IMG/VR virus record: IMGVR_UViG_3300042295_000443 | Location: 25,162-89,161 of that record | Source of the DNA: a virus | DNA length: 64,000 nt | Direction: 5' to 3' (one strand) | Shown: in pieces, positions 5,963 to 63,200 of the stretch | How the letters are laid out: every line of letters begins with the position of its first letter | Numbering within the stretch: the stretch's first letter is position 1 | Program-made: the position numbers and the translations under genes | Notes under the pieces: model-generated | Seen by the model: the letters and a program-made list of their open reading frames with translations, nothing else | The model's database searches: none | What the model was told of the DNA's origin: nothing

Positions 5963-6478
5963 TTAACTGTCATAGGCAAGACCTTGACCTCCTCTAACTT
6001 TACTAGATTGTTCTTCTTGTAAATCTTTATATACTCCTTTAAATGAAGCTCTAATCTGATCAAAGTTTTTTGCTGCAGCAACTATAGAATTTATATTACC
6101 ATCTCTTCCATCTGTAATAGGTGTATTCTCCATATATCTACCTAATCTATCTAACATAGATGCAATACCTTTGTATGCTCTAGATGTTGGTGTTTCATAC
6201 ATTCTCTGGCAAAACTGTAAAGCAGTATGGATATCATCATCCTCTAATGAAAAATCTCCATTTATTTCTTTCATAATTAAATACTCTTTGTCTATATCAG
6301 GTGCATAGAAAAAAGGATTCATATCTGGATTAGGACATGTCATGTAAAACAAATACAAGTAAATCTTAAGATGTTCTTCTGGATAGTTATCCATTATATC
6401 TTTTAAAGCTTTTAGTGTATAGCAATGTTCTGTTGGTACAACAATACCATTTTGTACATCAAATAGTCTTACTAACAT
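5963..6478 (-). CDS. Conserved crAss-like protein, candidate terminase small subunit
   Basis: 171 aa helical protein directly upstream of terL, ends KVRGGQGLAYDS; role inferred from position. Confidence 0.45.
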   Translation of the reverse strand: MLVRLFDVQNGIVVPTEHCYTLKALKDIMDNYPEEHLKIYLYLFYMTCPNPDMNPFFYAPDIDKEYLIMKEINGDFSLEDDDIHTALQFCQRMYETPTSRAYKGIASMLDRLGRYMENTPITDGRDGNINSIVAAAKNFDQIRASFKGVYKDLQEEQSSKVRGGQGLAYDS

Positions 6479-6479
6479 A

Positions 6480-7310
6480 TTATTTCTTTTTAATTGGGTT
6501 ATCTTTTATATAATTTATAATAGCAAGAACTTCATCATAAAGATAAGGTACTGCCATTAATGTAATATCATTTACTATAGGATCTCCATTATCTAAATAT
6601 TTAGTTATTGGATATCCAAACTCATCTTTACCTTCTTCTTCAAATGATATATGTTGTATAAACATTTTACCTGGAATAAGTTTAGGATTATGCTTTAATA
6701 TAATGTACATATAAATACTTAATTGTAGAGCATAATGATTAAAATTACAGTCATCTAATGAAGATATAGGAAAACTCATTTTATCTGATATACCTTCCCA
6801 ATTTTTAAATGATTCTTTTTTAATTTCTTTATTAGTTTTATAGTCTATAATGTTTACTTTATTATTTACTACTTCTACAAAATCTGATTGTCCACATATA
6901 CCTGCAGACTTGAGAAATACCATATGTTCAGGATATATACCTGAATCTAATTTTTGTGAAGGTGCTAATCTAATACCATTACTTTCTCCAGATGGAGGAA
7001 ATATAGGAACTACTATTCCTTCTCTTTCCATAGATGCTAATCCACATATGTCAGATTCTCTTTGATTATGATAAAAGGTACCTAATGTCATAGCTCTATC
7101 TGATTCAGCATTCCATATAGCTTCAATAGCAATAGGTTCAATTCCAAACCATTTAGATCTTTTACTTTTAGATACTTTAGCAGCTACTGCTTTAGAATCA
7201 AAAGGTTTTTTAAAATGAGATACTAGTGTAGTTACACTTATCCAATTAATTTTATCAGAATTATCTATACTTTTATAAGTATGATCTGATGCTTGAAATA
7301 CTATACTCAT
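6480..7310 (-). CDS. PD-(D/E)xK exonuclease
   Basis: SVTT, GTFYH, GQSD...IIDYKT, HYALQLSIY motifs. Confidence 0.85.
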   Translation of the reverse strand: MSIVFQASDHTYKSIDNSDKINWISVTTLVSHFKKPFDSKAVAAKVSKSKRSKWFGIEPIAIEAIWNAESDRAMTLGTFYHNQRESDICGLASMEREGIVVPIFPPSGESNGIRLAPSQKLDSGIYPEHMVFLKSAGICGQSDFVEVVNNKVNIIDYKTNKEIKKESFKNWEGISDKMSFPISSLDDCNFNHYALQLSIYMYIILKHNPKLIPGKMFIQHISFEEEGKDEFGYPITKYLDNGDPIVNDITLMAVPYLYDEVLAIINYIKDNPIKKK

Positions 7311-17331: not shown

Positions 17332-17964
17332 TTATTCGTTATCATAAAACATTCTTTCTGAATCTTCTGTTTGCCACTTTTCAAATCCTTCGCAGTTATA
17401 CCATTCATTACATACTAAGTAATCTGGTTTCTCTGGGAAAGCTTTAGTTACAAATGAAGGTTCAGACCATTTAATTCTGTTGTTAGGTTGTAAAGCTATC
17501 TGACCATTCTCAAGTAAAATGATATGATGACTTTTATGTTCTTTAGGATCTTCAGCTAATGTAAGATCTGTGTTAAGATCATTTGATCCCCAGTTAATAG
17601 TTCCATGGTAATTACCTTTGTAAAATTTATGGTCTTTCATATATACTTCTACAGGAGTATCATAGAGGTAAGACAAACTCATAACAGTAAAGTTATAAGA
17701 GAAGCAATTCCATAACTGTAAAAAATGAAATGGTAGATCTGGATCTGGTGTCTCTGGTTCAGTCAATAAAGCATGACTTGGTAACTTATCTCTAAGAGCT
17801 CCATTCTCTAAAAGTACCTGGAATAATGCTGCTTGCCCCGGCATACATCTTACTGATACTATTATCCCTGGAGTAAACTCTCCTTGACCTTTAGTGTGTT
17901 GGTACATGTATTCATTTCTTACAAATACTTTAAGAGGAAAGAAGTTATGTTCTATGTGTGCCAT
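17332..17964 (-). CDS. Conserved phage hypothetical protein (track start 18015; likely start MAHIEHN)
   Basis: LQLWNCFSY, EHKSHHI, ALQPNNRI; TACATTTG promoter motif just upstream. Confidence 0.65.
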   Translation of the reverse strand: MAHIEHNFFPLKVFVRNEYMYQHTKGQGEFTPGIIVSVRCMPGQAALFQVLLENGALRDKLPSHALLTEPETPDPDLPFHFLQLWNCFSYNFTVMSLSYLYDTPVEVYMKDHKFYKGNYHGTINWGSNDLNTDLTLAEDPKEHKSHHIILLENGQIALQPNNRIKWSEPSFVTKAFPEKPDYLVCNEWYNCEGFEKWQTEDSERMFYDNE

Positions 17965-18076
17965 AATAAATAAGTTTGTCACAAATGTATAAATATTTAT
18001 AATACTATAAAGCATAATATAGTTTACAAAACTATACTATTTTGTAACTTATATGTTACATTATGCATGCATATTC

Positions 18077-19805: not shown

Positions 19806-20081
19806 ATGGAGAAAATGTTAAGAGGTACTCTTATCAGTTTTTCTAATGAGGCAAAAGCCAATGTGAATGGTACTCAGTACCGTTCTTGCATTGTCAATAT
19901 TGGAGGTGAAAATTACTTTGCAAAGCTTTGGGAGAAATCCTTGGCTAAGGCAGTAATTGGAACTGAGTACAATATTGAGGCTGTAGTAGATGGTGATAAC
20001 TTGTGGTTAACGTGCCTTACGGGCGTTAGTGCAACTATTGCTACTCCTGCTACATTCGCTGCTTTGTTAGCAGAATTGTAG
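19806..20081 (+). CDS. Small beta-rich (OB-fold-like) early protein, paralogue B
   Basis: Paralogue of 18709-18975. Confidence 0.8.
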   Translation: MEKMLRGTLISFSNEAKANVNGTQYRSCIVNIGGENYFAKLWEKSLAKAVIGTEYNIEAVVDGDNLWLTCLTGVSATIATPATFAALLAEL

Positions 20082-20145
20082 GAAGTATCCTAGACTGAGT
20101 AAGACTCGGAGTGTACCACTACTTGGCAACAGAAGTGGAAAATAT

Positions 20146-20185
20146 TAATGAACTACATAGAAATATGTGGTTCATTACTTTTTTT
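20146..20185 (+). terminator. Intrinsic terminator
   Basis: TAATGAACTACATA-GAAA-TATGTGGTTCATTA then T7. Confidence 0.8.
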
Positions 20186-20190
20186 AAACA

Positions 20191-20217
20191 GCCTTTGGCA
20201 GAAAGAGTATACAAAAT
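20191..20217 (+). promoter_or_regulatory. Degenerate early repeat element 6
   Basis: GCCTTTGGCAG-N9-ACAAAAT; downstream boxes decayed. Confidence 0.45.
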
Positions 20218-20289
20218 AAAAGATAATATTTGCCTTGGCAAGTACTAATAGGTACTGTGTAGCAAATAGTCTATATATATACTTAACCG

Positions 20290-20325
20290 GCCTCCGGCAG
20301 GTGGGGCGTACAGCTTTCAACTTCT
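20290..20325 (+). promoter_or_regulatory. Early repeat element 7
   Basis: GCCTCCGGCAG-N9-ACAGCTT-TCA-ACTTCT. Confidence 0.7.
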
Positions 20326-20680
20326 TTGAGTGTGGTTAGGCCACGGTCATCTAGACCTACTAACCACCTATGTAACTATTAAAACTAGATTATTATAACA
20401 AAGTCTCCAGCCTGTGCAACAATGTGACTTTGGTACTGATAATCAGGTAGTTATAAAATGAGATATGTGAGAAAAAGAGGAAGAATGAGATTAACTATTA
20501 ACCTATCCAAGAATTTATAGGCAGAAATAGTCAGCAGAAATGGTCTTAAAGCCTAATATTATATAGTATATAGCTAAAACAGACTTAGTATATACATTAA
20601 GAATAGTATTATCTCTTTCTATAGTTAGAGTAACATAATAACTTATTCCGGAATTAAATAAATTTAAAACTATATATACT

Positions 20681-20977
20681 ATGAAAGATTTCATTCACAC
20701 AGGTTGGTGGGGACCTACATTAACTACCACTGAAGATCCTGAATTAAAAGTTATTGAAAGAGATAATGGTCATTCTTGGACTATGAACTTTTATGTTGGT
20801 CATCATTTAATTGATTGCATAAATATGGAATGGTGCCGTGGTACTAAACTAGACAAAGATGTTCTTAGACTTCCTGTGTATAGTGATGAAGGTATCTACT
20901 TAGGTAGTCTTGCTAAAAGATTAGAAGATGCAATTAATGTTATGCATCCAGAACCTATGTTTCATACAGGGGAGTAA
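20681..20977 (+). CDS. Early hypothetical protein
   Basis: 98 aa, A-rich leader, stop inside terminator loop. Confidence 0.7.
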   Translation: MKDFIHTGWWGPTLTTTEDPELKVIERDNGHSWTMNFYVGHHLIDCINMEWCRGTKLDKDVLRLPVYSDEGIYLGSLAKRLEDAINVMHPEPMFHTGE

Positions 20978-20994
20978 TCCCCTTTTATTTAGTA

Positions 20995-21908
20995 TTGTTG
21001 CCTTTTCTTTAACCAGGCAAGTATCCAGTAAGTTGCTGGCGTGGGACTGTCCAGTATAGTTACAAGACAGTAGGGTTTGGTCTATTTCCCTTAAAGACCA
21101 TTAAGTACACAATGTTGTTACCCTCAGAGTTTAGATACTCATGGTGTGTGCGTTAAACCTATTATAACGGTTACTAAAACAACAGGTCAGCTCTCGTGAC
21201 CAAAGGATAAACCAGTAATGGTATAAAGTGATATGTTGGTAACATATTGCGCAGGAGTAATCCTGTCTACAGAAGAGTATTGTAACTACCTACATTTTGG
21301 TGTGCTTGTGGCCTAACGGTTGATGCATAGAGATGTAGACTTTCTAACAGGTAGGAAGTTGAGACAGAAATGTCAATAGAAAGTGCAATAGGTAACAATA
21401 GTACATCTCGCCAAGATGGAAGTTGTTATTAGTGAGATGTTCTTTATGCTACTAGAAATAGTGTGTATTTACATCAAACAGTGAGTAAGCTTGGCCGCTT
21501 AAAGCAATGTGAAGTTATAACTAAGGTACTCAAAAGGTATTATGTTATATAAAGTTGGAACTACTTCACATTATTTCCTGAACCGCATTTAAACTAAAAA
21601 CTTAAAAGCAAAGAATGTTCTAGCACTTATTAGTGAAAATGCTCTTATCCTACTGCAATATGTAGGTACAGAAGACCCGCAAGGTTTATGTAAAGGGACT
21701 GATTAATATCTTAACTAGCAGTAGACATACTGTGTATCCCGTAAGGAAGTTGGTATGAAAGGAAACTTATTGCACTAATATGTAAAAGTATGATGATACT
21801 ATAAATCATTGAGCATGTTGTTTACTTATAGAAATATAAGTGTGTATGAGGAGAAGAAATTTTCCAAAAATAGCAACATGAAAGGTCAATACTCATCCTT
21901 TCAATAGT
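20995..21908 (+). ncRNA. Large structured non-coding RNA region (one or more RNAs)
   Basis: No ORF; many stems, several with GAAA/GTAA/GCAA loops, an AGUA/GAA loop-E hairpin at 21391-21430, possible pseudoknots. Confidence 0.7.
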
Positions 21909-22076
21909 AATGCACCATTTCTACTTCACAAGGGTAGACAGTTGTAATGTATGAACGCAACACTACTAGATTTTATCACTAGAAAGATGTTACATAGGGT
22001 TTTAATTAAAGAAGACTGATAATCTTTTTTATAACCTGCCGGAAACTTACATTATAACTGAGTGCAGAGTGATATT
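21903..22076 (+). ncRNA. Twister ribozyme (variant, long P5 insertion), copy 1
   Basis: P1 AATA/TATT, G-T^AA, P2 TGCA/TGCA, P4 TCTAC/GTAGA, loop TTCACAAGG, pseudoknots TCAC/GTGA and CC/GG, conserved GA; predicted cut 21908/21909. Confidence 0.75.
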
Positions 22077-22103
22077 AAATAGTAACCAACTAAACTATAA
22101 TAT

Positions 22104-22256
22104 ATGATTTTTCAATTGATTGCTCAAATTATTAAAGATGCTGATAAAGTATCAAACAAGAAATTAGATAAAGCTGCTTATGCAGATTATCTCAATACTC
22201 TTTCTCTAGATGATCTACTATTCCTTAAGGATAGTTATAGTTCAGAGTTAGTATAG
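22104..22256 (+). CDS. 50-aa ORF between the two ribozymes (not in track)
   Basis: MIFQLIAQIIKDADKVSNKKLDKAAYADYLNTLSLDDLLFLKDSYSSELV, A-rich leader. Confidence 0.65.
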   Translation: MIFQLIAQIIKDADKVSNKKLDKAAYADYLNTLSLDDLLFLKDSYSSELV

Positions 22257-22289
22257 TACTTATTCCTGCAAGATTAATTTCTTGTGGGA

Positions 22290-22415
22290 TTAGTAATACA
22301 CCACTTCTCATTCCCAAGGTGAGACAGTTGTAATAGTAAGAGAGCAGGTTGCTTAGTCACACCTGCGGTAAATAATACTAAATCTTACACATTACAACTG
22401 AGTACAGAGGGATAA
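22290..22415 (+). ncRNA. Twister ribozyme (variant), copy 2
   Basis: P4 TCTCA/TGAGA, loop TTCCCAAGG, pseudoknot TCCC/GGGA covarying with copy 1; P2 TACA/TACA has two A.C mismatches; predicted cut 22294/22295. Confidence 0.65.
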
Positions 22416-22532
22416 CAAGGGTCATAACCTTGGGGCATAACTAAGAGCTAGTAAGAAGACATAGAGTTCATTTTATTATGAAAGATACAACTCTTATTAG
22501 AACAACTCTTAGTTAATGCTTTATAAATATGT

Positions 22533-22772
22533 ATGAAATATATACAATTTATAATTGAAAGTAATTCTAATAAGAAATTAGATGCTTTCACTAAAGAATG
22601 TATTAATGCCATCAGAAGATCTGGTGCTGTTAAAGCTGGTCCAATACCTTTTAAAGGTAAAAGATTATTTTATTGTTACAGTCCTAATGGAAAGACTATT
22701 GATAGACTTATGTCATTAAAATGTCCTAAAGGTGTGTTAGTAACAATAAATTCTTTGGAAAATCCTCAATAA
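22533..22772 (+). CDS. Ribosomal protein uS10/NusE homologue lacking the extended loop
   Basis: RRSGAVKAGPIP..KRLF...PNGKTIDRLMSLKCPKGVLVTI aligns to S10 KRTGAQVRGPIP...RLVDI..[22 protein letters not shown]. Confidence 0.8.
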   Translation: MKYIQFIIESNSNKKLDAFTKECINAIRRSGAVKAGPIPFKGKRLFYCYSPNGKTIDRLMSLKCPKGVLVTINSLENPQ

Positions 22773-22844
22773 AAGGGGTTAGTTAAAGCTGAAATAACTA
22801 CAAAGCTTTGTTTTTAACTTAAAATTAAACTTAAAAATATACTT

Positions 22845-23102
22845 ATGGATACTGTTTACTGGACTATGAAAAATGGTCAAAAGATAGATGTTGATACAAT
22901 GGATATTCAACATCTAAGAAATACTCTTAAAATGCTTATTAGAGCTAAGAGAGCACAATCTGTACCTAAATTTCAGGTACATGGAGAAATTGCTAGTGAA
23001 TTTGCTGATATGGCTATGCTATATAGTATTTCACCTGAATTAACTTGTCAATGTGATGAGGTACATGAATGTCAACAGTGTTATGAAGAATCTAAAAACT
23101 AA
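22845..23102 (+). CDS. Hypothetical protein with Cys-rich tail
   Basis: WTMKNGQKI.VDTM...HLRN; CxC...CxxC. Confidence 0.6.
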   Translation: MDTVYWTMKNGQKIDVDTMDIQHLRNTLKMLIRAKRAQSVPKFQVHGEIASEFADMAMLYSISPELTCQCDEVHECQQCYEESKN

Positions 23103-23106
23103 AATT

Positions 23107-23217
23107 ATGGAAAAGATTGAAGTAACAATGCAAGAGATTTGGAAGGCTACTAAGCCTATTATCTATAAGAATAAGAAGAAATATTCTAGAAAAGATAAGC
23201 ACAAAACTAGCAGGTGA
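23107..23217 (+). CDS. 36-aa basic peptide (ArfA-like tail)
   Basis: MEKIEVTMQEIWKATKPIIYKNKKKYSRKDKHKTSR; stop in terminator loop. Confidence 0.55.
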   Translation: MEKIEVTMQEIWKATKPIIYKNKKKYSRKDKHKTSR

Positions 23218-23230
23218 AAGTCCTGCTTTT

Positions 23231-23572
23231 ATGATTACTAACTTAAAAATTAAACTTATGAATAGAAATTATCCCTTTGGTTATGGTGTGTTAGCCGGTC
23301 TACACACTGTTAAAATAAATGTTAACTTATTAGTTGCTGATGCAAGTAAATTAGTAGACAAAAATGAACACTTAGCAATTTACTCTACAGGTAGAGGTGA
23401 CAGAATAAGAGTAGAAGGTTTTATAACAGGAGCAAATTTTTCAAATTTTATTAAAGATTTGGAAATATATAAACTTGATTATAAAATAAATAAACTAATA
23501 GAAAGAAAAGTTCTTATATTAGATACTTCTATATCTACTGCAATAGCAGATCTTAATGATTTACCTTTTTAA
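23231..23572 (+). CDS. Hypothetical protein ending DLPF
   Basis: ORF; SSB-like C-terminal tip. Confidence 0.55.
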   Translation: MITNLKIKLMNRNYPFGYGVLAGLHTVKINVNLLVADASKLVDKNEHLAIYSTGRGDRIRVEGFITGANFSNFIKDLEIYKLDYKINKLIERKVLILDTSISTAIADLNDLPF

Positions 23573-51285: not shown

Positions 51286-51324
51286 AAGGGAGATTAGCAG
51301 AAATGCTTTTCTCCCTTTTTTTTT
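51286..51324 (+). terminator. Terminator at convergence of replication and virion modules
   Basis: AAGGGAGA..AGCA-GAAA-TGCT..TCTCCCTT plus T-run. Confidence 0.8.
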
Positions 51325-54300
51325 ACATCAACGCCTCAGAAATTTCTTTCTTCTTAATTGCCCAATAAGGTGCAGCATTCTTACCAGATAAACCAATTAA
51401 GGCACCAAGATGATTATATATTTTATAATTACCTTCTTCTTGCCAAGAATATGGACCAACATCTTGTTTATAAAGTGCTTTATCACTTCCTGTTGCCATA
51501 TAACCTAGATCTATTAAAATTTTACCATATACTCCTAATGTTGGACTTACTACAATAGTACTTGTTTCAGAAAACTTTGTCCATTCATTTAATCCTACAA
51601 AAGGTAATGGTATAAAAGTTTGATTTTCTCTTTTAACCATCATTAATTGATACAGTAAATGATTAGCCATCCATCCTGCTCTGCCATATTTTTCTTCCCT
51701 TTCTTTTATTTTTTTAAATCTATCTTCATCACCTACACTATATCCAAAAATATAAGTTATTATTACACCTAATAAGACTAATAACATACCTTCTGTAAAT
51801 ACTTTTTTCATAACAGATTTTTCTTCAGCTGTCATTAAAGGAGCATATGTATTATATTTTGTAATTAATTTCCAAGAAGATTGAAGAAATTGTATATAAC
51901 TACCTCTCTTACTTTCATCTAAATCCCAATCCCATGTATCTCCACCAAAGTTTTCTTTAGATGTATCCATTTGAAATCTTTCTAAAAACATACCTGTAGC
52001 ATATTTTCTAGAAAAACTAAATAAGTTATAAAGTAAATATTTTTCAGCAGCAGGTGAATCAAGATCATTTGTAGTACCATTTAATCTTTTATTAGAGGCT
52101 GCCATTACTCTTTTTATTTTATTTAATTCAGTACTTCTTGCAATTACTAAGCTATCTCCTATTTCAATATTTTCAAGACTAGTTATTTTATTTTTTAACT
52201 TAAGTTCTTCTACAGTTATATTATACTGTTTAGCAATTGAATCTAGGGTATCTCCTTTAACTAAAGTATGATCTACAGGAGCAGTTCCCCATTCAGGATT
52301 TATTCCATCTTTTAATTTTATTGAACCATCTTTAGCAGTTTCAAAAGCATTTGCATATCTTATCTGTAAAACAGAACCATCAGGTTGTATTTGATCAACC
52401 ATTTGTTTTTCAAGAATACTAAAACCTATTTCAAAAGCACCTTGTTTTTCTAATAGTCTTCTATCTGAATACATCCAACTACCTTCTATTAAATCTTTAA
52501 CTCCTGTTCTTGTAGTTGATTTACCAAAGTCTTTTTCTGCTTTACCTGGATCCATACCAAATAATTCAACCATCTGCATATTTAAACTTTTCATTCCTCT
52601 TGCATAAGCTCCTTGACCAGCATATTCAAATATAGCTTTAGTAGCTGTAATTTGACCTCTTGCCATAGATGGAAAATCAATATACTTTCCTCCAGCTGCA
52701 AAGACTAGTTTCTGATAATTCATTCCCCATTTATTCTTAACAGATGATACAGGATTTAAAGCATAAAAAGCTCTACTTGCTTGAGCCATTAAGCCTCTTG
52801 CAACTTTTGTAATCTTAACATTATCAGATTGAAATTCAGCAGTAACTTGACCATAGAAAGTTCTGTCCATAAAATCATTAAATAACTGTAGTCTTTTATT
52901 AGTAGATCTTTTTAAGAACACGGCAGATTTATCATTAATTTTTGATAATGTTTTACTTGCTCTATCTAACTTATCTAATGCGTTATCAGGATCTGCATAA
53001 ACAGATTGTATAGCTTTTGCTATTGATTCATTTTCTATTAATGTATTTTGTTTATCTAAAGAATACATATAGTTCCATTGAGATCTAAGAACATCTGTAG
53101 AAACTGCATTAATATCAAGTTTAAACAAACCTCTTACAGGAACTCTAGTAATTGGATTTCCTTGTAGATCAGTAGGTACAAATAATAGATCATTATCAAA
53201 ATTAAATCTATTTTCTGGATCATCAGAAGCAGCTTTTACTGAATCTTTTATATTTATAGCAATACTACTTGATTTTTCTTTTATGTCCTCTTTTAATTTA
53301 CCTTTTTGAAGATATTCTAAATTATCTTTTATTCTAAATCTTGCAAAATCTAAATACATTTTAGATGGATATTGTTTACCCTCTTGCATCTTTAAATAAT
53401 TTTCTTTTAGTTTTTCTAAAAGTAAAAACTGAGCATTATTTTTTTGTTTAAGTTCATAATACTCTTTATTCATGTACTTATCATTAGCATGACCTATTGC
53501 ATATTCAATAGGCAACATATTATTTCTATTATCTACATGAACTCCAACCTTTAATTCAACTTTTTTAGTTTTAGGATTGTATCCTGTAAAAAATTCATCT
53601 TTAATTTTTGTTACTGAATACTTAGCTATTGGAACTCCTTCAAAAGGTATTTGTTCTTTTGTTATAGGGTCTAATAATATTGTATGCTTATAATAACCTT
53701 CATCTGCAGGCTTACTAATATTCCAAGCTTTTAATCTAAAATATTTTAAAATAGATTCTCCTGTTTCTACATCATATCCTGTTCTTGTATAATGATTTTT
53801 ATCAAACCATTCAGCAAATTCAGGACTAGCTGCTCTTGCAGCTGCAACATCAGCAGATTTAAGCCAATTATCTGCCGTGTCTACAGTAAGTGGGGAAAGA
53901 TCTAAATTACCTAAAGCATTATTAAATGCTGTAACATAGTGATCTGTACATTCTACATTAGTTAACTCAGCTAATTTTTTATATTCTTTTCTTAACTGAG
54001 TTGTTTCTATAGAAGTTAAACCAAATATAGTTTTTTCAGAAGCTAATTTTTTATACTCAGCTTGTTCTTCTGCACTCATTTCAGACATTAAACCAAGACC
54101 AATAAGATCTTCATAATATCTAAACTTAGCAGCATCATCTTTGGATAATCCAGATTTTCTATCAAAGCTTTCTTGTGCTTCAACTATTTCTTCTTCAATA
54201 GCTTTAAGTCTATTAATTTGATCAGGAGCTAATCTTAAACCATTAGGTTCTCCATCCTTATCAGTTACCCTATTTACTAAATTATATCTTTGTTCATATA

Positions 54301-57199
54301 AATTAGCAAGTTGTTTTGATACTGCAGTGTCTTTACTTTTTTCATTAAGTTTTTTAATCCGTTCAAGAGTATTACTTCTTTCTTGATAATATGCATCACT
54401 ATAAGCAACTTTAAAGTTCTTATCTCTAAACTTTATAATTTCTGCTTGATATCTAGCAGGATCTGATTCTTTTGTAACACCAATTGCACCAAGTGTAACA
54501 GTAACAAAGTGATCAAAATCTCTTTGTACTTTATCTAAATTAGGTGTTGTTTCACTAAATTTTCTTGATTGCTCTCTATATGCTCTTCTTATTAAAACTT
54601 TTTCTAGTTCTATACCTTGTTTATATTGACCATTAAGATTAAACATGTTATATAATTCATCATATTTAATCTTAGCAGCTTTAGATGGAGTGAATTCATT
54701 AAGGTCATCTAATTCTGTAAATACAGAATTATTAAATGTACTCATATCTTCAAGAGCAGCTCTTCTTTCCATATAGGCATCTAAAGAAACTTGTGCAGAA
54801 ACAACTATATCTTTTTTTGTTGCTGGATTAAAAACTACATTGTCTTGTCTCCACATTTTCTTTACTGCATATACAGCATCAACATGTTGTTTTTGCATAT
54901 ACTTTTCTTCCCATTCCCATCTAGCATTTAAAGCAGCTTTTATTTCATCTTTGTCACCTTTTTCTTTTGCTTTTATAATATTATCTTCTAGTTTAGCTTT
55001 ATCAAATCTCCAAGTTTTAAACTTATCAAGATATGCATAAATTTCTGTTTCAATAAGATTTCCATCTTTATCTCTATCAGGAACTATATCTTTAAATAAA
55101 ACAATATCTGCTATAGCACTAGTATCATTATGACTAATTCCTGTAGCAGCAAGATAAGGTTGTAATTCTTCTGCCATTTTATATTGAGCCTGAAGACTTT
55201 TCATTTCTTGCTCTGATAATTTGTCTTTCATAAAATTTACAAAAGAACCTAACATGTCATTTACATTTCCCATAGGAGTAAGCATACCCGCCATTCCTAC
55301 ATCTTTTACATGTCCTCTTAAATAATTATCAACACTTTCTTCTGTAATTTTATTAGCATTATAATTAAAAATTTCTTTTAATAATAAAGGTGCACTTTTT
55401 AAAGGTCTTGGTAATAAAAAATCTTTAGTTGCAATTGATCTGATATTTTGTACATCAAGCTTATAAAATAAATCATCTTTAAAAGCTTGTATTTCTTCTT
55501 CTGTAAATTTTTCTACAGATAATGCTTTGTCAATATAGTTTTCAAACTTTTCCTTTACATTTTTTTGCATTGGTAAACTGTTTTCTATAAAGAAACCTTT
55601 AACAAAATCAAATGTCATGTCTTTTGCTTCATCAATATTATCTTGTACTGTAGCTTTAAGTGATAATATTTTTTTTACTATTTGATCTGAAGGATTTAAA
55701 CCTAATGCTTTTCTAACATTTTCTAGAAATTTAAGCTCTCTTTCCATGAATTGCTTAAAGTATTGTATTTTAGCATTACCATCATGAGTCATAAATTTAT
55801 TAGTATCTTTCATTTCTGCCATAATACTTTGAACTCTATTTGCAAAAACTTCTAATTCAGTTAAACTATTAATAAATGATAAAGATCTTTTTCTTAAATC
55901 ATCTTGTTCAATTTCTAAAGTTCTAAATAATTCTTCAAGTTCTTCTTCTGTAATATCTTCTCCTACTGTTTTGTATGCTTTAACATAATCTCTTATGTTT
56001 CTTAAAACATCCATTCCTTCTTTTCCTTTTAGATCTTCTTTAAGTTTCTGTGGAGAATTTCTAAGAACTCCAAGTTGAAAAGCCATTTCAGTATGGAATT
56101 GATTGATTACATCTATAAGTTTTTGAGGAGTAGCTTTTTTTAATTCATTTAAATAATCTTCTGTGTCTTTTTTAAATTCTGCAAATAAAGATAACTGTAG
56201 ATTTAAATCTTCAATAAAGAAATCTTTATTTAACATCATGTCTACTAACTCTTCTCTTGTAGTTGATGTAGATAGATTTTTTAAATTTACTTTTCCAACT
56301 AAAGCTTTTAATACTTGTTTAATAGCAAATAATAAATTTTGTATAAACTTAGCAAAGGCACTATCATTATTAATAATTCCTGCAAGTTCTCTATCAGCAT
56401 CAAACTGCATAGCAGTAACAATAGCTTCTTCTTTAAATCTTGGTGTGTCTTCTTTTAATTCAGGATATTTATTTCTTACATGCTTTATAGCTTCTAATCC
56501 TGTTGCAGATTGAGTTAACTGATTAAATAAATTATTAAATAATTTAGGATTTTGAATAGCAATTCCTTTAACTAAAGGGTGTGCAAACTCATGTATAACA
56601 GAACTTGCACTAAACTTTCCTTTTATAAAATATACTTTATTATTATAATAAAAAGCAGATACATCATTAGTATATGGAGTTGGACTTTCAGAAAGTAAAA
56701 TAGCAGCATCTGCAGGAGTTATTATATCATAACCAATTCCAAAAGCTTTAGCATATTTTTCACCTAATTTTTCAGCAATTTCTAAATCTCTATGTTCTAA
56801 AACTTTATCTGTAAAATAATTTTCTATAGTTCTTTGATTAGATCTTTCATCTGATTCTTTTTTAAAGACTTCATCTTCTAAAACATTATCAATTAGTCCT
56901 GCTCTAATAGAATCTTGGCGTTGAAGTTCTTCTGCTTGTCTTTCTATTTCTTTTAACTCAGCTATTTCTTTTTCAAGTTCACTAGCATAATAAGTATCTA
57001 TTAAAGACTGTGGTATAGTTATATTTCTTTCTAATTCATCTTCTGTATATTTTGTAAAAGAAATAACTTTTGCACCATATATAGCATTTATTTCAGCAGC
57101 TAATTTATTAGCATTAGCCAAATTCATTAAAAGACCTGGTTGGCCTTTATCATAAACTTGTTGAGTTAAATTTGCTTTTATTTGAATTGGACAAGGCAT
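51323..57199 (-). CDS. Giant virion (ejected) protein with zincin motif and LysM domain
   Basis: HEFAH at ~56579-56593; LysM HTLVKGDTLDSIAKQYNITVEELKLKN at ~52142-52273; hydrophobic segment near C-terminus. Confidence 0.75.
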   Translation of the reverse strand: MPCPIQIKANLTQQVYDKGQPGLLMNLANANKLAAEINAIYGAKVISFTKYTEDELERNITIPQSLIDTYYASELEKEIAELKEIERQAEELQRQDSIRAGLIDNVLEDEVFKKESDERSNQRTIENYFTDKVLEHRDLEIAEKLGEKYAKAFGIGYDIITPADAAILLSESPTPYTNDVSAFYYNNKVYFIKGKFSASSVIHEFAHPLVKGIAIQNPKLFNNLFNQLTQSATGLEAIKHVRNKYPELKEDTPRFKEEAIVTAMQFDADRELAGIINNDSAFAKFIQNLLFAIKQVLKALVGKVNLKNLSTSTTREELVDMMLNKDFFIEDLNLQLSLFAEFKKDTEDYLNELKKATPQKLIDVINQFHTEMAFQLGVLRNSPQKLKEDLKGKEGMDVLRNIRDYVKAYKTVGEDITEEELEELFRTLEIEQDDLRKRSLSFINSLTELEVFANRVQSIMAEMKDTNKFMTHDGNAKIQYFKQFMERELKFLENVRKALGLNPSDQIVKKILSLKATVQDNIDEAKDMTFDFVKGFFIENSLPMQKNVKEKFENYIDKALSVEKFTEEEIQAFKDDLFYKLDVQNIRSIATKDFLLPRPLKSAPLLLKEIFNYNANKITEESVDNYLRGHVKDVGMAGMLTPMGNVNDMLGSFVNFMKDKLSEQEMKSLQAQYKMAEELQPYLAATGISHNDTSAIADIVLFKDIVPDRDKDGNLIETEIYAYLDKFKTWRFDKAKLEDNIIKAKEKGDKDEIKAALNARWEWEEKYMQKQHVDAVYAVKKMWRQDNVVFNPATKKDIVVSAQVSLDAYMERRAALEDMSTFNNSVFTELDDLNEFTPSKAAKIKYDELYNMFNLNGQYKQGIELEKVLIRRAYREQSRKFSETTPNLDKVQRDFDHFVTVTLGAIGVTKESDPARYQAEIIKFRDKNFKVAYSDAYYQERSNTLERIKKLNEKSKDTAVSKQLANLYEQRYNLVNRVTDKDGEPNGLRLAPDQINRLKAIEEEIVEAQESFDRKSGLSKDDAAKFRYYEDLIGLGLMSEMSAEEQAEYKKLASEKTIFGLTSIETTQLRKEYKKLAELTNVECTDHYVTAFNNALGNLDLSPLTVDTADNWLKSADVAAARAASPEFAEWFDKNHYTRTGYDVETGESILKYFRLKAWNISKPADEGYYKHTILLDPITKEQIPFEGVPIAKYSVTKIKDEFFTGYNPKTKKVELKVGVHVDNRNNMLPIEYAIGHANDKYMNKEYYELKQKNNAQFLLLEKLKENYLKMQEGKQYPSKMYLDFARFRIKDNLEYLQKGKLKEDIKEKSSSIAINIKDSVKAASDDPENRFNFDNDLLFVPTDLQGNPITRVPVRGLFKLDINAVSTDVLRSQWNYMYSLDKQNTLIENESIAKAIQSVYADPDNALDKLDRASKTLSKINDKSAVFLKRSTNKRLQLFNDFMDRTFYGQVTAEFQSDNVKITKVARGLMAQASRAFYALNPVSSVKNKWGMNYQKLVFAAGGKYIDFPSMARGQITATKAIFEYAGQGAYARGMKSLNMQMVELFGMDPGKAEKDFGKSTTRTGVKDLIEGSWMYSDRRLLEKQGAFEIGFSILEKQMVDQIQPDGSVLQIRYANAFETAKDGSIKLKDGINPEWGTAPVDHTLVKGDTLDSIAKQYNITVEELKLKNKITSLENIEIGDSLVIARSTELNKIKRVMAASNKRLNGTTNDLDSPAAEKYLLYNLFSFSRKYATGMFLERFQMDTSKENFGGDTWDWDLDESKRGSYIQFLQSSWKLITKYNTYAPLMTAEEKSVMKKVFTEGMLLVLLGVIITYIFGYSVGDEDRFKKIKEREEKYGRAGWMANHLLYQLMMVKRENQTFIPLPFVGLNEWTKFSETSTIVVSPTLGVYGKILIDLGYMATGSDKALYKQDVGPYSWQEEGNYKIYNHLGALIGLSGKNAAPYWAIKKKEISEALM

Positions 57200-57228: not shown

Positions 57229-60200
57229 TTACTGACAATCAAGTGATGTTCTTTCTATTCCTGGTAAACCTTCTGGAGAATTAAGATTATTTTCAGCTTC
57301 ATATTGTTCTCTATCACGCATTGCTTCAGATAAATCTTCAAAAGATGCTGACTCATTATAAGCTCTTATACTCTCTTGTTGTTCACTTTCTTCTTGAAGT
57401 ATATTACTTGCTATTGCAAATGCTTGATTATATGCTGAACTACCTTTATTTAAGCCAAGAGCATTTAATATAGCATCTATTATTTCTTCAAATAAGTTCT
57501 TATAATTTTTAACATCAGCAGGTGCTAATTCTTTAAGTTGAGTAATAAATTTAGCATCTGTAAACAAAGCTACAAAAAATTCATCAATTGTATAATTAGC
57601 ATAAGGTCCAGTTAAGTCTTTTGTATTAAATTTTCCTAGCTGATTAATGCTATGATCATATAATTTTTGAAAGTCTTTATTAAATTCATTATTTTTTCTT
57701 AGTGCTTTATAAGATAGAGCATGTAAAATTTCATGAAGTAATAAAGTCTCACTTTGACCATTTCTTACATTTGCAAATTCTGCAATAGAAATATTATTAT
57801 TATAATTATCATAAAACCCTCTACTTAAAAAGTTAGGATTATTATTAAAACCAACTTGTTCTTTTAATAAAACATCTACATCATTTATATTAGCAAATGA
57901 TTTTAAATGTTTAGCTAATGTATTTAGTGGATGATTTGATTCACCTATAGCATTTAATAATACTGATACCTTTACTATCTCTGAATCTTTAAAATACTTT
58001 TCTCTTATGTTTACATCAGGCTTATTACCAGATATAACATTTTCTTGAATACTAGATGGTAATTGAGTAACAACTTTAGCTGGTGTTTTAGGCATTCCAG
58101 GTTCTAAATTTTTAACTCTTCTTAAAGTAATAGATATTCTATAACTTCCTTTTTCATAATTTTTTCCATCTATTTCTGTAGTTATTGCAGGTAAAAATCC
58201 ATCTTGCTTTGATGGAAAAGTTCTATGCATTACTTTTCTATTTTGTCCATTTAAACCAAAAATATATGAATCTCCAGCATTAAGAGGAGTTGGTTCATAT
58301 TTACCAGTTTGTTGAACACTAAAATTACCACTACCACCTATATTAAGAACAAGAACAGGATAACCAATAGCATCAGCAGCTTCATCTACATCATTATGAG
58401 CACTTATAAAAGTTTCATCCTTATAAAGATTTATTATAGCTCCATCATAATCAGTAGCATCTATACCAGTAGCTTTAGACATTAATGTTTTAATTCTAGG
58501 ATTAATAGGACCTAATGGTTGACCATTAATAGATACTTCATAATAACCATACTTAGCACTACTTCCAGGTACAATAATATTTTTTATTTCAATAGCTTTA
58601 TAATTAGGATTATTTGATTTATAATCCCATCTTAAACCTAATCCAATCATTACATTTGCACTAGTAGCTTTATTAGTTGTAGCTCCTTGTTTTTCAATAT
58701 AAGGTTTAAGAATATTAAATAACTCAAGTTGTTCTTCTTTAGTTATAACATTTCTTTTAATTTCAACACCTGGAATTACCACTTCTGTTTCAACACTAGT
58801 AGATGGTTGAGTAATAGATTTACTAATCAATCCTGTTTTATTAGCATTTAGCTCTGTAACTAATCCATATCTACTTAACAATTCATTTTGTAACCATTCT
58901 GCAAATCTTGTTGGTATTTTAGCTAAATCAGAGGCAAATCCTTGAGGAAATATTTTAGTTTCATACTTATCTATTTTAGCAAATTGTTCTAAATTTACTT
59001 TTTTAAATAACTCAAAATCAGCTTCTGTATCTTGAAAATCTTGATTCCACCCCCCAGTTATTTTTGAAGTAGCTCTATCTTCTTCATATACATAATACTT
59101 TTTAGTTACTATACCTATTGCATTTGGATTATTTCTAATAACTGCACTTCCTCCACCAACTCTTGAAGAGCCTATAGAATTTATATTTTCAGTAAATATG
59201 TAAGCAGTGTTAGGATTTTCTTTTGGCGAATCTTTAGTCCAATTGTTTTTAACTATTGAAGATTTACTATTAACACTAGTAGATGGTTGAATAGGTTTAT
59301 TAACTAAATTTTTCTTTAATAAAGCTAACACAGATGAATCAAGATCTTCAACATTAACTACAGGTACTTCTGGTGTTTCAACAACTGGGGCTTTTTTAAA
59401 CTCTGTTGCTTTAGGAGCTACATAATTCTTAATTTTTTTATTAAGAGGATTTGTAAGTAAATTAAAAATTGTATTTAAAGTATTCACATCTAGTACCTTT
59501 TCCTCAAATATTACAGATGCTGTTTGCATAACATTGAGATAATCATCATAAGGTAATGCTTCATTAAATCCTAAAGCACTGTATCCTATACCATGTTGAT
59601 AGATCATCATTAGAGGTAGTTGAGCAAATAACTTACTAATCCTTGCATTATCTTCAGTATTTGAAGATTTCTTAATAGTGCTATCTGCTAGGTCAAGTAA
59701 ATTTTGATAATATATTTCTGCAAGTTGCCCGTCCTTAAGCATTTTAACATCATTTAATGTTAATACAAAATTTTGAACAATTTCAACTTTAGGAGCACCA
59801 AATGCTTCTTCTCCAGTTTTAGCAAAAACTTTTGTTATTGTTAAAGGTTTACTAAATTGAGAAATAATTGGATATTTATTTTTTAGTTGTGGAAACTCTT
59901 GTATGATATTCATAACCATATCTGTATATGAATTATTTTCAATACCACTTATAGCTTGTCCATTATATGCATTAAGAAGAGCTTGCTGATTTGTATATTC
60001 CTCATATGCTAATTTAGATACCTGATTTTCAGGAACTCCTTCATTACTTAAAATACTTTTTATTTTTAAATAATCTTTATTAGTTTTTAAAGAATCAATA
60101 GGGAATGCATTTCTCTGATATTCTCTTTCAAATACATATCTTACATAAGAAGATTCATTAGGGAACATATTGTCCTCAGTATCAAATCCTTTTAAACCTG

Positions 60201-63200
60201 TATTATTATAGGCACTTGTTGTTGTATTAGTATTTAAATAAACTTTATCAGCATAATCTTTTTTTAATTTTGCTTCATCAACAAATATAGTATCACCAAC
60301 TACTTGTGCACCTCTTATAACTTTATCTTTTTGTTTAACTTTTAAATTGTTAAACTCAGATGGCATATTTGTTAACTCACCATTCTCATCTATAAAGTGA
60401 GACATGTAGTTTTGAAATATGTAATTAGGAATTGCATTTTTAAATTGTGTAATAAATTGACTTACACCATCTTGTCCTTTTCCAAATCTATCAGTTATAA
60501 GATTAGGATGTGTTTCTATTTTTTGAAGAATATAATTAGTCACCCTATCATTATTTCTTAATTGAAATAAAGGAATTATTAGATCTTTAATTAATTGGTT
60601 ATCAAAAAAGCTACCTAATATAGAATCTTGCATAGCTTCAACTAAACCATCATCTAATTTTGAAAGTTCTTTAGCATCTTCTAGTGATACATTTCTTCTA
60701 ACTATTTCTTGAATAGTTTTAGAAGTTTTAGTATCTGGATTACTTAATGATTTAAGAGTACTAAATCCTTTAGAAGATTTTTCAAGTTCTAGAACATGTA
60801 AGAAAACTGCAAGAGCTTTAGGAGAAGTTGAATCACCAGTCATGACAATATCTTCTAATTCTTTTAAACTAAATTCTTTTATACCTTTAGTAGCTGCTTT
60901 TGCTGTATAATAAAAATTTGCATTAGATACAGCAAATTCACCAATTTGTATAAAGACTCCAGTAGCTGGTAGTTTTCCTTGTTTAGGATAATTTACAGAA
61001 TAAAGTTGTTTTATATCAATAGTACCTTTAGAAAGATCATTAAGTAGCTTTTGCTTTGTAGTTGGTACTTTTTCTAAATCAAATACTTCTATAGCCTTAC
61101 CATTTCTATCAGTTCCTGGTTTAGTTCCTATAATAATATTTATCTCAATATCTTCTCCATAAGGAGTTTTTTTATTTAAAGCATCTTTAAGTTTTAAAAG
61201 ATTAGCTTCAGGCATAATCTTCTCTAAATTTTGTTTAATACTAGATTGATATAGACTTGATTCAAAAATAGATTTATAATTTAGTACATTATTTGCTGCA
61301 GTATATTTTGCAAATGCAATATTATAATCTTTATCAATTAATCCAGTAACTGGAGCATAAGCACTTTTTATAAATCTTTGTTGTTCAGCATATGCTCTTA
61401 CTAATGGTTGTGATACCATCATTATAGCTTCCATTCTAGGAACACCTGCTTTAAATAAGAAAAGTAACATTGGAACAAGTTCTAAATTTCCTTGTATAAA
61501 AAATATCCAAGCATCTTTTTCAGCATCTAGGGCACCATTTAAACTTTGAGAAAATAATTCTGAAATTTCATCCATTCCATCTGCACTATAAATACTTGAT
61601 AAAGATATTTTACCATCTTTAGTTTTATTGTGTGGAACTAATAGTCTTACATCATAATCAATATCTCCTTCAATTAATTTTCCAGCTTTATTATAACTTG
61701 ATTCTTTATAAGTTAAAGGCATTGTTGCACCAACTGAATTAAATATTGGATTTAATGCATTCTCTAGAGCTATAATACCTAATACTTTTTTAGCAACCAT
61801 GTTTTCATCATGCTTGGCCATATTGTATTCTACTTCTAATGTATTTGTTGGACTAATGCCTTGACTAGTAGCTCCTGTAAATTGTTTCTTTAAATTATCA
61901 GCAATTTCTTTTAATAAATATGTATCATTAGGTCTTATTAGGCTTACAAAATTATCTTCTAGTTCTAGAATACCTCTTATTGTAGTAATTAAATTATTTT
62001 CAGAAGCAGCTTTTTGTGATTTAATTAAATTAAAGACATCTTTTTTTCCATCTTTTGTTTTATTTAATCTAGCTACTTCAGCTTCTAAAGCTTCAGTAGA
62101 TATTCCTCCTTTAACAAAATTGCCATCTTTATCAATATGTGGTAAAAATGTAGTTAATTTATCAATGTCAAAGTCAGCTCCTGATTTAGCAACTATTTCT
62201 GTTGGAAGAATTATAATACCTCCAGCAGAAGGATCTAAAAACTCATATACTTCCATGAATTCCATAGAGTTAACTCCTTGTACTGGTATTCTAACACCAG
62301 TAAGAGTTACTGCTTTTCTGTTATCATCTTTATTTAACCATTCTTCATCTTTAATAAGTTCATTAAGTCTTTGTCTTGTTCCTATAGGTTCTCCATTTGT
62401 ATCTTTTAATTTTAAAAGATTTAAAAAGTCTCCTTGTAAAGAAATAGCAACTTTCATTGCAGATGTATTACTAACTAATTTTACTTTTGGTTTTTTACCA
62501 GCAAGTACAGCTTCTAAATAATCAGTTTCAACTCTTAAGTTGTATCTATTTCTAGCAGTATAGTAGTTTGCTTGATCTACTAGTATACCTTTATTTATTT
62601 TAAGTAATTCAGCAAGTTTTTCTTTAGTGTAGTCTTTATATTTAACATCAAGATCTGTAGACTCTTCACTAAAGAAAGGTAAATTATTTGTACCAATGTA
62701 TTTTTTTTGGTCTGCTAAAGTAGCATTTCTGAATCTTGTTTGTGAATCCCAAATTCCATTAGTCATAGAACTTGCTACTTGAACAAAAGCTTCACCTTTT
62801 ATATTTTGTTTAATTAATCTTTTTTCTACAAGAGAAACAAGAATCTTTTCTATCTCATCTGCTTTTAAGTGTAATGATAAATCAGTCTTAAGTGACTTGT
62901 CTCTATTGAGACCAACCATTTGAATTAGATGTTCTGGTAACTCTCTTTTTTCAAGTTCATCTTGAACAACATTTAAAAACTGATTAATGTTACCTGTATA
63001 CTTTTTAGTTTTAGGATCATATGTATATCCTATTTCATTAAGTAATTCAAGTTTAAGTACAGCACTGTGATGATCTACAGCAAGTTCATATGCTCTAATA
63101 GCTTCTCCATTCTTCTCTTCATTAATTATTTTGCCATTCTCATACATACCGTTAAGAATTAACTTTCTTAACTGAGTAGGAAATATTGTTTTATTTTTAA

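Follow-up and report, generated by a model that had tools for sequence, protein, structure and literature searches.

A probable divergent GOLLD-family RNA in a freshwater tailed phage distantly related to crAss-like phages

Does a gene-free gap in a phage genome encode an RNA and, if so, of what kind? The question arises in a 64,000-nucleotide (nt) stretch of IMG/VR virus record IMGVR_UViG_3300042295_000443, hereafter the window. Within it, an earlier note made from the sequence alone described positions 20995-21590 as free of open reading frames (ORFs) and proposed a large, ornate phage noncoding RNA comparable to ROOL and GOLLD, family unknown. Our analysis shows that the RNA is real and expressed, and that it is not a new kind of RNA. 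We consider it very probable that 20995-21590 comprises the 5′ domain and the first 3′-domain hairpin of one GOLLD-family RNA of about 915 nt, encoded on the plus strand and belonging to a divergent clade; its carrier is a tailed freshwater phage with crAss-like phages as distant relatives. The entire RNA would occupy 20991-21908, with ends placed by conservation, by the end of an Rfam match and by a predicted twister-like cut.

The family assignment begins with the 3′ half. The earlier note had recommended cmscan against Rfam; at gathering thresholds this returns no match in the whole 64-kb window, which explains why the family looked unknown. A match to GOLLD appears only in Rfam's E-value mode, where 21507-21899 on the plus strand aligns with positions 1-416 of the 416 in model RF02032 (88 bits, E 6.5e-23; repeated on the window's own genome). 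Since the RF02032 model is confined to the conserved 3′ half of GOLLD, a match at this position puts 20995-21590 where a GOLLD 5′ domain is expected. Clade members tested against the model score 83-115 bits, each over its full length and each below 150, so the Rfam cut-off misses all of them. This threshold was set on a narrower seed, and the statistical match is beyond doubt. The 3′-domain structure is also kept through compensatory changes, as its helices covary in the clade at 21628-33/21775-80 (six of six pairs), 21718-22/21729-33 (five of five) and 21817-22/21872-77 (four of six). Its opening hairpin, 21506-21572, is the last stem listed in the earlier note; this stem, AATGTGAAGT/ACTTCACATT at 21506-21515/21563-21572, covaries and is the first helix of the RF02032 match. 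ROOL, the Rfam RF03087 family with an 8-mer cage, is likewise large, ornate and phage-associated and shares the RNA-only cages predicted below, and no threshold tried produced a ROOL match in the window. At about 580 nt, ROOL has intertwined halves and not two separable domains (PMC12286853), in contrast to the two separable domains of the window RNA.

The extent first proposed lies inside the real RNA and is incomplete. Conservation across the family starts with AGTATTGTTGCC at position 20991 of the window (family alignment), and the second domain continues to a 3′ boundary at about 21900-21908, given that the RF02032 match stops at 21899 and the predicted cut falls at 21908/21909. That the stretch is free of ORFs was borne out. 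From the stop codon of a 98-aa gene (20977) up to a 50-aa ORF at 22104, there is no ORF of at least 60 amino acids (aa), and no stop-to-stop frame in 20989-21923 exceeds 52 codons on either strand. The plus-strand fold of 20985-21910 reaches -239 kcal/mol, with a z-score of -3.8 against dinucleotide shuffles, as compared with -1.7 for the minus strand.

The structure of the 5′ domain (20991-21505, plus strand) was derived by comparison. A MAFFT alignment (A3) of 16 family members, namely the window and 15 viral contigs with 57-92% identity, was searched for runs of covarying stacked pairs, from which the structure was curated and then counted. The 138 pairs of the curated 5′ domain are formed in 93.4% of cells, versus 33-45% in controls slid by 1-3 columns. 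The covariation score is 0.441, which none of 500 shuffles reached (0.171 ± 0.007) and which slid controls do not approach (at most 0.124). Covariation among homologs, on which the earlier note had staked its proposal, is thus present, with both sides changed in 66 of the 138 pairs. Invariant G-U pairs (e.g., alignment columns 534/552, 535/551, 383/415 and 269/363) would become A-C on the opposite strand and therefore fix the plus strand, in agreement with what had been deduced from GNRA loops and G-U polarity.

The 5′-most 110 nt consist of four covarying hairpins with conserved loops (e.g., ACUGUC/GACAGU, UUGGUC/GACCAA, CUCAC/GUGAG and AUAGGAA/UUCCUAU), located at 20998-21002/21016-21020, 21025-28/21036-39 (loop UAAGUUG), 21046-51/21066-71 and 21079-83/21095-99. 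The core helices on A3 are 21105-11/21145-51, which is crossed by 21114-19/21178-83; 21127-30/21137-40; 21156-59/21169-72; 21185-89/21197-201; 21211-14/21219-22; 21230-37/21241-48; 21252-56/21261-65; 21279-83/21385-89 with 21285-87/21382-84; 21290-98/21330-38; 21340-45/21353-58; 21363-66/21371-74; 21391-99/21422-30; 21404-08/21414-18; 21436-40/21471-75; 21445-49/21463-67 with 21451-54/21459-62; and 21487-90/21497-500. All of the stems listed in the earlier note are where it had put them, and nearly all show compensatory changes. ACCA-GTAA-TGGT (21211-21222) covaries, with A-U replaced by U-A and GUGG/CCAC in L144; CAGGA-GTAA-TCCTG (21252-21265) is supported by covariation; GACA-GAAA-TGTC (21363-21374) covaries at all four pairs; and ACTA-GAAA-TAGT (21451-21462) belongs to an extended hairpin in which six of nine pairs covary. 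GGTCA/TGACC (21185-21201) is invariant across the 16 sequences, and farther relatives have GGCU/GGUC.

The proposed bulged-G or loop-E motif, GGTAACAAT-AGTA-CATCT...AGATG-GAA-GTTGTTATT (21391-21430), appears plausible from the alignment. Its loop (21400-21421, plus strand) sets AGUA at 21400-03 opposite GAA at 21419-21, between helices in which five of nine and four of five pairs covary. The 5′ strand, UAGUA, is invariant in the 16 sequences, whereas the 3′ strand is only half conserved, being GAAG in nearer relatives and GGAU in farther ones. The pseudoknot suggested earlier between ACTTTCTA and TAGAAAGT did not survive, because it pairs in seven near-identical sequences and breaks in divergent ones. 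Both of its strands are taken by covarying helices, CUUUCU/AGGAAG at 21340-45/21353-58 (CACCA/UGGUG or CUCC/GGAG in relatives) and ACU/AGU at 21285-87/21382-84, the latter being part of the helix that closes a multi-helix junction. We also rejected the inter-domain long-range pairs and the UAAGU/AGCUU closing helix that RNAalifold proposed from five near-identical sequences and from the 16-sequence alignment, since the 3′ partner varies without compensation and the local hairpin 21487-90/21497-500 covaries.

Is this 5′ domain that of a GOLLD? For comparison we used canonical loci scoring 295-302 bits (L079, L104, L131 and L134) or 202-223 bits (L021, L045 and L031) against RF02032. Canonical GOLLDs stayed out of reach of nhmmer iterations started from the 5′ domain, so a covariance model was needed. 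This model (R1), built from 19 sequences of the clade, describes only the H5-H8 module at 21183-21284 (105 positions, 22 pairs) and was searched against the collected GOLLD loci, 0.3-1.0 Mb on both strands. Full-length matches of 22.6-30.1 bits were obtained in L079, L045, L104, L131/133/138/141, L145, L137, L126, L128 and L134. The module begins 325 nt before the RF02032 start in L079, 326 in L104, 325 in L131 and 332 in L134, compared with 324 nt in the window. Judged by sequence, R1 score and exact position taken together leave homology of the 5′ domain to that of canonical GOLLD as the only reasonable reading.

The 5′ regions of the seven canonical loci also have several features of the window in the same order. 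One is a hairpin loop complementary to the strand that follows the third hairpin (GUUUAG/CUAAAC in canonical GOLLDs, GCUCU/AGAGU in the window). Another is the motif GAUAA-(GNRA hairpin)-AYUAAAG, which reads GGAUAA-ACCA-GUAA-UGGU-AUAAAG in the window and is followed by two further hairpins. A third is GUUGAG-(GNRA hairpin)-CAAUAGGAA, found 240-267 nt before AAAGCAA (248 nt in the window), the hairpin of which covaries as GACA/UGUC, GAUA/UAUC, GAUG/CAUC, GUCA/UGGC and GUGA/UCAC. The description of a large, ornate, plus-strand RNA with GNRA loops and a loop-E-like loop therefore stands, but the family is GOLLD, given the RF02032 E-value of 6.5e-23 and 5′ modules collinear with those of bona fide GOLLDs. 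The GOLLD alignment supplied with PMC12286853 comprises 3′ domains only (about 420-490 nt) and hence cannot be used for numbering the 5′ helices.

Two tertiary pairings strengthen the connection. In the pseudoknot at 21190-21278 (plus strand), the loop GCUCU (21190-94) of hairpin 21185-21201 pairs with AGAGU (21274-78); it is 100% paired on A3, with three of five pairs changed on both sides, and occurs as GCCUU/AAGGU, GUCUU/AAGAU, GCUUAU/GUAAGC and, in canonical GOLLDs, GUUUAG/CUAAAC. The second is a candidate kissing loop (21409-21496, plus strand) between complementary hairpin loops CGCCAA (21409-14) and UUGGCC (21491-96). GCCAA/UUGGC is invariant in the family, and the equivalent loops are CUGUCA/UGACAG in L079, L131 and L134, CUGCAA/UUGCAG in L104 and ACCA/UGGU in L144. 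As read from these sequences, both pairings covary between the window's clade and canonical GOLLDs. One loop tops the hairpin after the GUUGAG motif and the other the last hairpin before the first 3′-domain helix; by helix order these hairpins would be P10 and P12. In the GOLLD of S. agalactiae, an intermolecular kissing loop of L10 with L12′ is one of the cap contacts (PMC12990946).

A graded family surrounds the window RNA. A blastn search of 20978-22104 against 50,697 GenBank phage records gave no match, and homologs were found by patterns. Positions common to the window and the RF02032 consensus yielded 118 viral loci, a 5′-domain motif pattern 23, and a second 5′-domain pattern, TCAGAGTT-N(1-9)-ATACTCAYGGTGT, 25. 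At least 20 homologs have both domains homologous by nhmmer, with identity falling from 92% to about 45%, and the two domains co-occur in every one. The gene for the upstream 98-aa protein is found at 10 loci, with the RNA in only one lineage (L006/L007), which is 94-95% identical to the window across 21018-21948 and 70-88% identical in the flanking genes. Since other phages have the same upstream gene without the RNA, the RNA behaves as an accessory cassette. Synteny of the downstream 79-aa protein gave one locus, which is without the RNA. A prefiltered RF02032 search of 11 related virus records found no match, yet cmscan of the L007 locus gives 85 bits; the prefilter misses this divergent clade, and negatives from such searches are thus uninformative. 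In bacterial genomes, the clade-specific pattern scan found one 4.6-kb contig in a lake metagenome-assembled genome bin (L168), which offers no usable host evidence.

It might be argued that the flagged 600 nt are a new class of RNA, a novel 5′ RNA fused to or adjoining a GOLLD-like 3′ module, so that the whole merely resembles GOLLD. The clade as a whole scores under the RF02032 gathering score, nhmmer with the 5′ domain gives only short local similarity to canonical GOLLDs, and there is no neighborhood of transfer RNA (tRNA) genes, all of which would suit a separate family. However, bona fide GOLLDs contain the H5-H8 module recognized by R1, equally far from their 3′ domain, and they have in common with the clade two signature motifs and two tertiary pairings, which covary. 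Moreover, the 5′ domain of GOLLD is known to differ from one subset to another (PMC12286853, PMC12990946). We therefore regard a separate family as unlikely.

Whether the two domains belong to one molecule is a further question, as they are joined by an A-rich linker (21573-21616, plus strand) that varies in length and sequence. This linker corresponds to that of the solved GOLLD, which is variable and disordered and at times has tRNAs inserted (PMC12286853). In the window it is closed by an 8-bp helix, 21554-61/21617-24, with seven of eight pairs covarying. Expression data bear on the same point. The stretch is present in 18 lake-water DNA runs and six freshwater metatranscriptome runs. When contigs of four RNA studies were placed on 20000-23400, they covered 21123-21903 at word depths of 142-683, as compared with 0-10 for the genes on either side. 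X19 has a 741-nt contig at 21170-21889 (depth 142, flanking contigs about 3), X21 three contigs over 21123-21845 (293-333, flanking 2-3), X22 covers 21123-21670 (510-683, flanking 10-22), and an X24 contig includes 21203-21903 (478). High-depth contigs do not cover 20991-21122, where their 5′ parts run into unlike sequence; we attribute this to the variable 5′ hairpins of related strains, and it has no bearing on the true 5′ end.

Two independent RNAs, one at 20991 to about 21575 and another at about 21615-21905, would fit an A-rich, poorly conserved linker and the separate folding of the domains in the solved GOLLD (PMC12286853). We find this very unlikely, because single contigs bridge the linker (X19 at 21170-21889, X24 at 21203-21903), which argues for one RNA, and because the covarying 8-bp helix ties its two sides together. 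Both domains are also found together throughout the family, and known GOLLDs are single RNAs. That the region is a decayed gene or spacer with chance stems, as its AT-rich composition (GC of 0.33-0.39, in which short hairpins arise easily) might allow, is hardly tenable and already contradicted by 94-95% identity to L007 against 70-88% in flanking genes, pervasive compensatory changes, high RNA-library depth and the lack of a conserved reading frame.

Several points do weigh against assignment to a single GOLLD-family RNA. With 88 bits, the match falls short of the curated gathering score of RF02032, 150. On canonical GOLLDs, R1 reaches modest E-values (0.001-0.08 for the bases searched), and the argument therefore draws on position in addition to score. 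ARAGORN found no tRNA genes in the 64-kb window, though GOLLDs typically adjoin tRNAs; adjacency is typical and not obligatory, and in some clade relatives a tRNA lies no more than a few kb away. The 5′ domain has been shortened, as an element GUAGGCUGAUAUACC...GUAUAUCC of L155, L152, L151 and L144 is missing in the window, and this could alter assembly stoichiometry. The RNA evidence consists of assembled contigs, which carry neither strand nor ends and whose depths are summed over related strains. Directly before the RNA, a terminator-like hairpin (20968-20983) with a T-run (20968-20990, plus strand) closes the upstream 98-aa gene. No convincing promoter was found between it and 20991, and promoter consensus scans found 13 hits, at the chance level of 13.1. 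The window RNA thus departs from typical GOLLDs in score, in tRNA context, in its shortened 5′ start compared with farther relatives and in the twister-like element that follows it.

Against these stand the likenesses to GOLLD: length over 800 nt (about 515 nt of covarying, less conserved structure upstream of the 3′ domain in a total of about 915 nt), two domains with an A-rich linker, a full-length 3′-domain match, a phage carrier, a lake origin and abundance in RNA libraries. The 5′ modules also keep the same order and spacing, from the hairpin with its pseudoknot through GAUAA-(GNRA hairpin)-UAAAG, two hairpins and GUUGAG-(GNRA hairpin)-CAAUAG to the P10/P12 complementary loops.

Typical GOLLDs are embedded among tRNAs and presumably excised by tRNA-processing enzymes. 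How, then, might the window RNA obtain its ends? Immediately downstream lies a twister-like element with a long insert of about 95 nt (21905-22077, plus strand), recognized by the blocks UAAUGCACC...CAAGGG...GUGCAGAGUG common to relatives. A second copy is found at 22291-22414, and the two bracket the 50-aa ORF at 22104-22256. Most clade members have an element UAAUGCACC ... CAAGGG ... GUGCAGAG(U/G)G within 7-10 nt of the terminal GOLLD helix, and L007, L149 and L162 have twister-like copies on both sides of the RNA. In L152 the same slot gives a twister-P1 match (E 4e-10) whose 56.8 bits fall short of the gathering score, 67.2, and L165, 98% identical to L152 across GOLLD, has a variant element between the same GUAC/GUAC flanks. 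Twister covariance models found no match at E up to 10 in 20300-22600, nor in L149, L165 and L070. A twister-type cut by the putative element at U21908/A21909 is plausible. We tentatively suggest, as a possibility held with somewhat less than even confidence, that the clade has a distinct mode of GOLLD biogenesis in which flanking variant twisters (after the RNA in the window, on each side in L007, L149 and L162) release it from a longer early transcript in place of tRNA-processing enzymes. If so, the RNA would have a defined 3′ end with a 2′,3′-cyclic phosphate; what cage assembly requires throughout would be a defined end and not linkage to tRNAs; and the long-insert variant twister would represent a new subtype of ribozyme, one that escapes the Rfam models. 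In the literature searched, nothing relevant was found on GOLLD with twister or GOLLD with crAss.

The X24 contig noted above (1,199 nt, depth 478) runs from 21903 directly to 22080, with 10 other letters at the join, and from 22289 to 22829, with 13. These joins point to a related strain without both twister-like elements and the 79-aa ORF (22533-22772), and to cassettes swapped as units. In related phages that have the upstream 98-aa gene and no GOLLD, self-cleaving ribozymes of other kinds occur close to this locus: a hatchet at L009:3146-3287 (66.3 bits, gathering score 51), a pistol at L011:6351-6419 (42.8 bits, gathering score 34.5) and a weaker pistol at L012:3548-3613 (31.5 bits). Ribozyme cassettes thus seem to have a hotspot in this early region.

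Solved GOLLDs are closed homo-oligomeric cages, a 14-mer in env-38 (PMC12286853) and a 12-mer in S. agalactiae (PMC12990946), with caps built from 5′ domains and a linker that faces inward (PMC12286853, PMC12990946). By analogy, we predict that the window RNA would be made during infection, would fold into two domains joined by a flexible linker, would probably have its 3′ end released by the putative twister-like element downstream, and may self-assemble into a closed cage made of RNA alone. Its caps would consist of the 5′ domains and be held in part by the conserved complementary loops at 21409-14 and 21491-96. It is the placement of these loops in P10 and P12 that predicts multimerization, and homo-oligomeric assembly of the window RNA has this indirect basis only, complementary loops at kissing-loop positions. 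Among solved GOLLDs, stoichiometry changes with differences in the 5′ helices (PMC12990946). Because the 5′ helices set it there, and because the window's 5′ domain is without the element of farther relatives, its stoichiometry may differ.

With regard to the carrier, the window lies within an 89-kb virus record and encodes a portal protein, large terminase subunit, DNA polymerase, primase and helicases, as befits the phage or prophage context of GOLLD. The nearest terminases are those of Flavobacterium, Cellulophaga and Bacteroides crAss-like phages (about 24% identity), and this likeness makes a Bacteroidota host likely. The first descriptions of GOLLD RNA, reportedly treated by Weinberg et al. 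in 2009, drew on lake metagenomes and on prophages of the Lactobacillales, to which the family owes its name; a lake phage with GOLLD is therefore an expected setting. The present carrier, a lake phage related to crAss-like phages, differs from the Caulobacter, Roseobacter, Vibrio and Mycobacterium phages listed in the published GOLLD alignment (PMC12286853).

Immediate neighbor genes received no function from PHROG or Pfam searches. Farther away, a 227-aa protein (17332-18015, minus strand) matches the phage 'ferredoxin' auxiliary-gene family phrog_3704 (E 1e-65), and its gene sits at the switch from minus-strand to plus-strand gene blocks. Two giant minus-strand ORFs of 1,958 and 2,156 aa (51323-57199 and 57229-63699), one with LysM and the other with 2OG-Fe(II) oxygenase and DUF7831 domains, may encode crAss-type virion proteins.

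The collected loci contained other RNAs as well. In L029, L099, L060, L034, L053 and L102, two tRNA genes spaced about 900 nt apart enclose a GOLLD-like RNA that likewise scores under the RF02032 gathering threshold. By nhmmer, no 3′ domains outside the clade come closer to it than theirs (E 1e-8 to 1e-14), whereas their 5′ parts have no similarity to the window RNA detectable by nhmmer, and their tRNA flanks are unlike the window; this group suggests further unannotated GOLLD diversity. The typical tRNA context, in contrast to the tRNA-free window, is seen in L045, where a bona fide GOLLD (6034-6499, 206 bits) with a tRNA inside the linker (6102-6166) lies in an array of about 30 tRNA genes. 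A freshwater-1 RNA (RF02979, 75.4 bits, gathering score 72) occurs at L165:12522-12584, on a contig that also has a divergent GOLLD. Phage transfer-messenger RNA genes lie a few kb from GOLLD at L144:5449-5859, L157:2753-3226 and L031:5274-5356 (85.6, 84.1 and 51.8 bits, gathering score 47), two of these contigs being of the window's clade.

Taken together, what is new here is a clade below the threshold, in crAss-like phages, without tRNA neighbors and with ribozyme-like ones; GOLLD itself was already known. The Rfam threshold misses this whole lake-phage clade, which has at least 20 distinct sequences in IMG/VR, and surveys that use the gathering score accordingly undercount both the GOLLD family and its host range. 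That range here takes in phages related to the crAss-like group, with Bacteroidota as their probable hosts. The graded alignment includes two tertiary pairings that covary and provides a comparative model of the 5′ domain, which Rfam lacks. Finally, the combination of conserved complementary loops with a trimmed 5′ domain offers a natural variant for probing how 5′ architecture sets cage stoichiometry.

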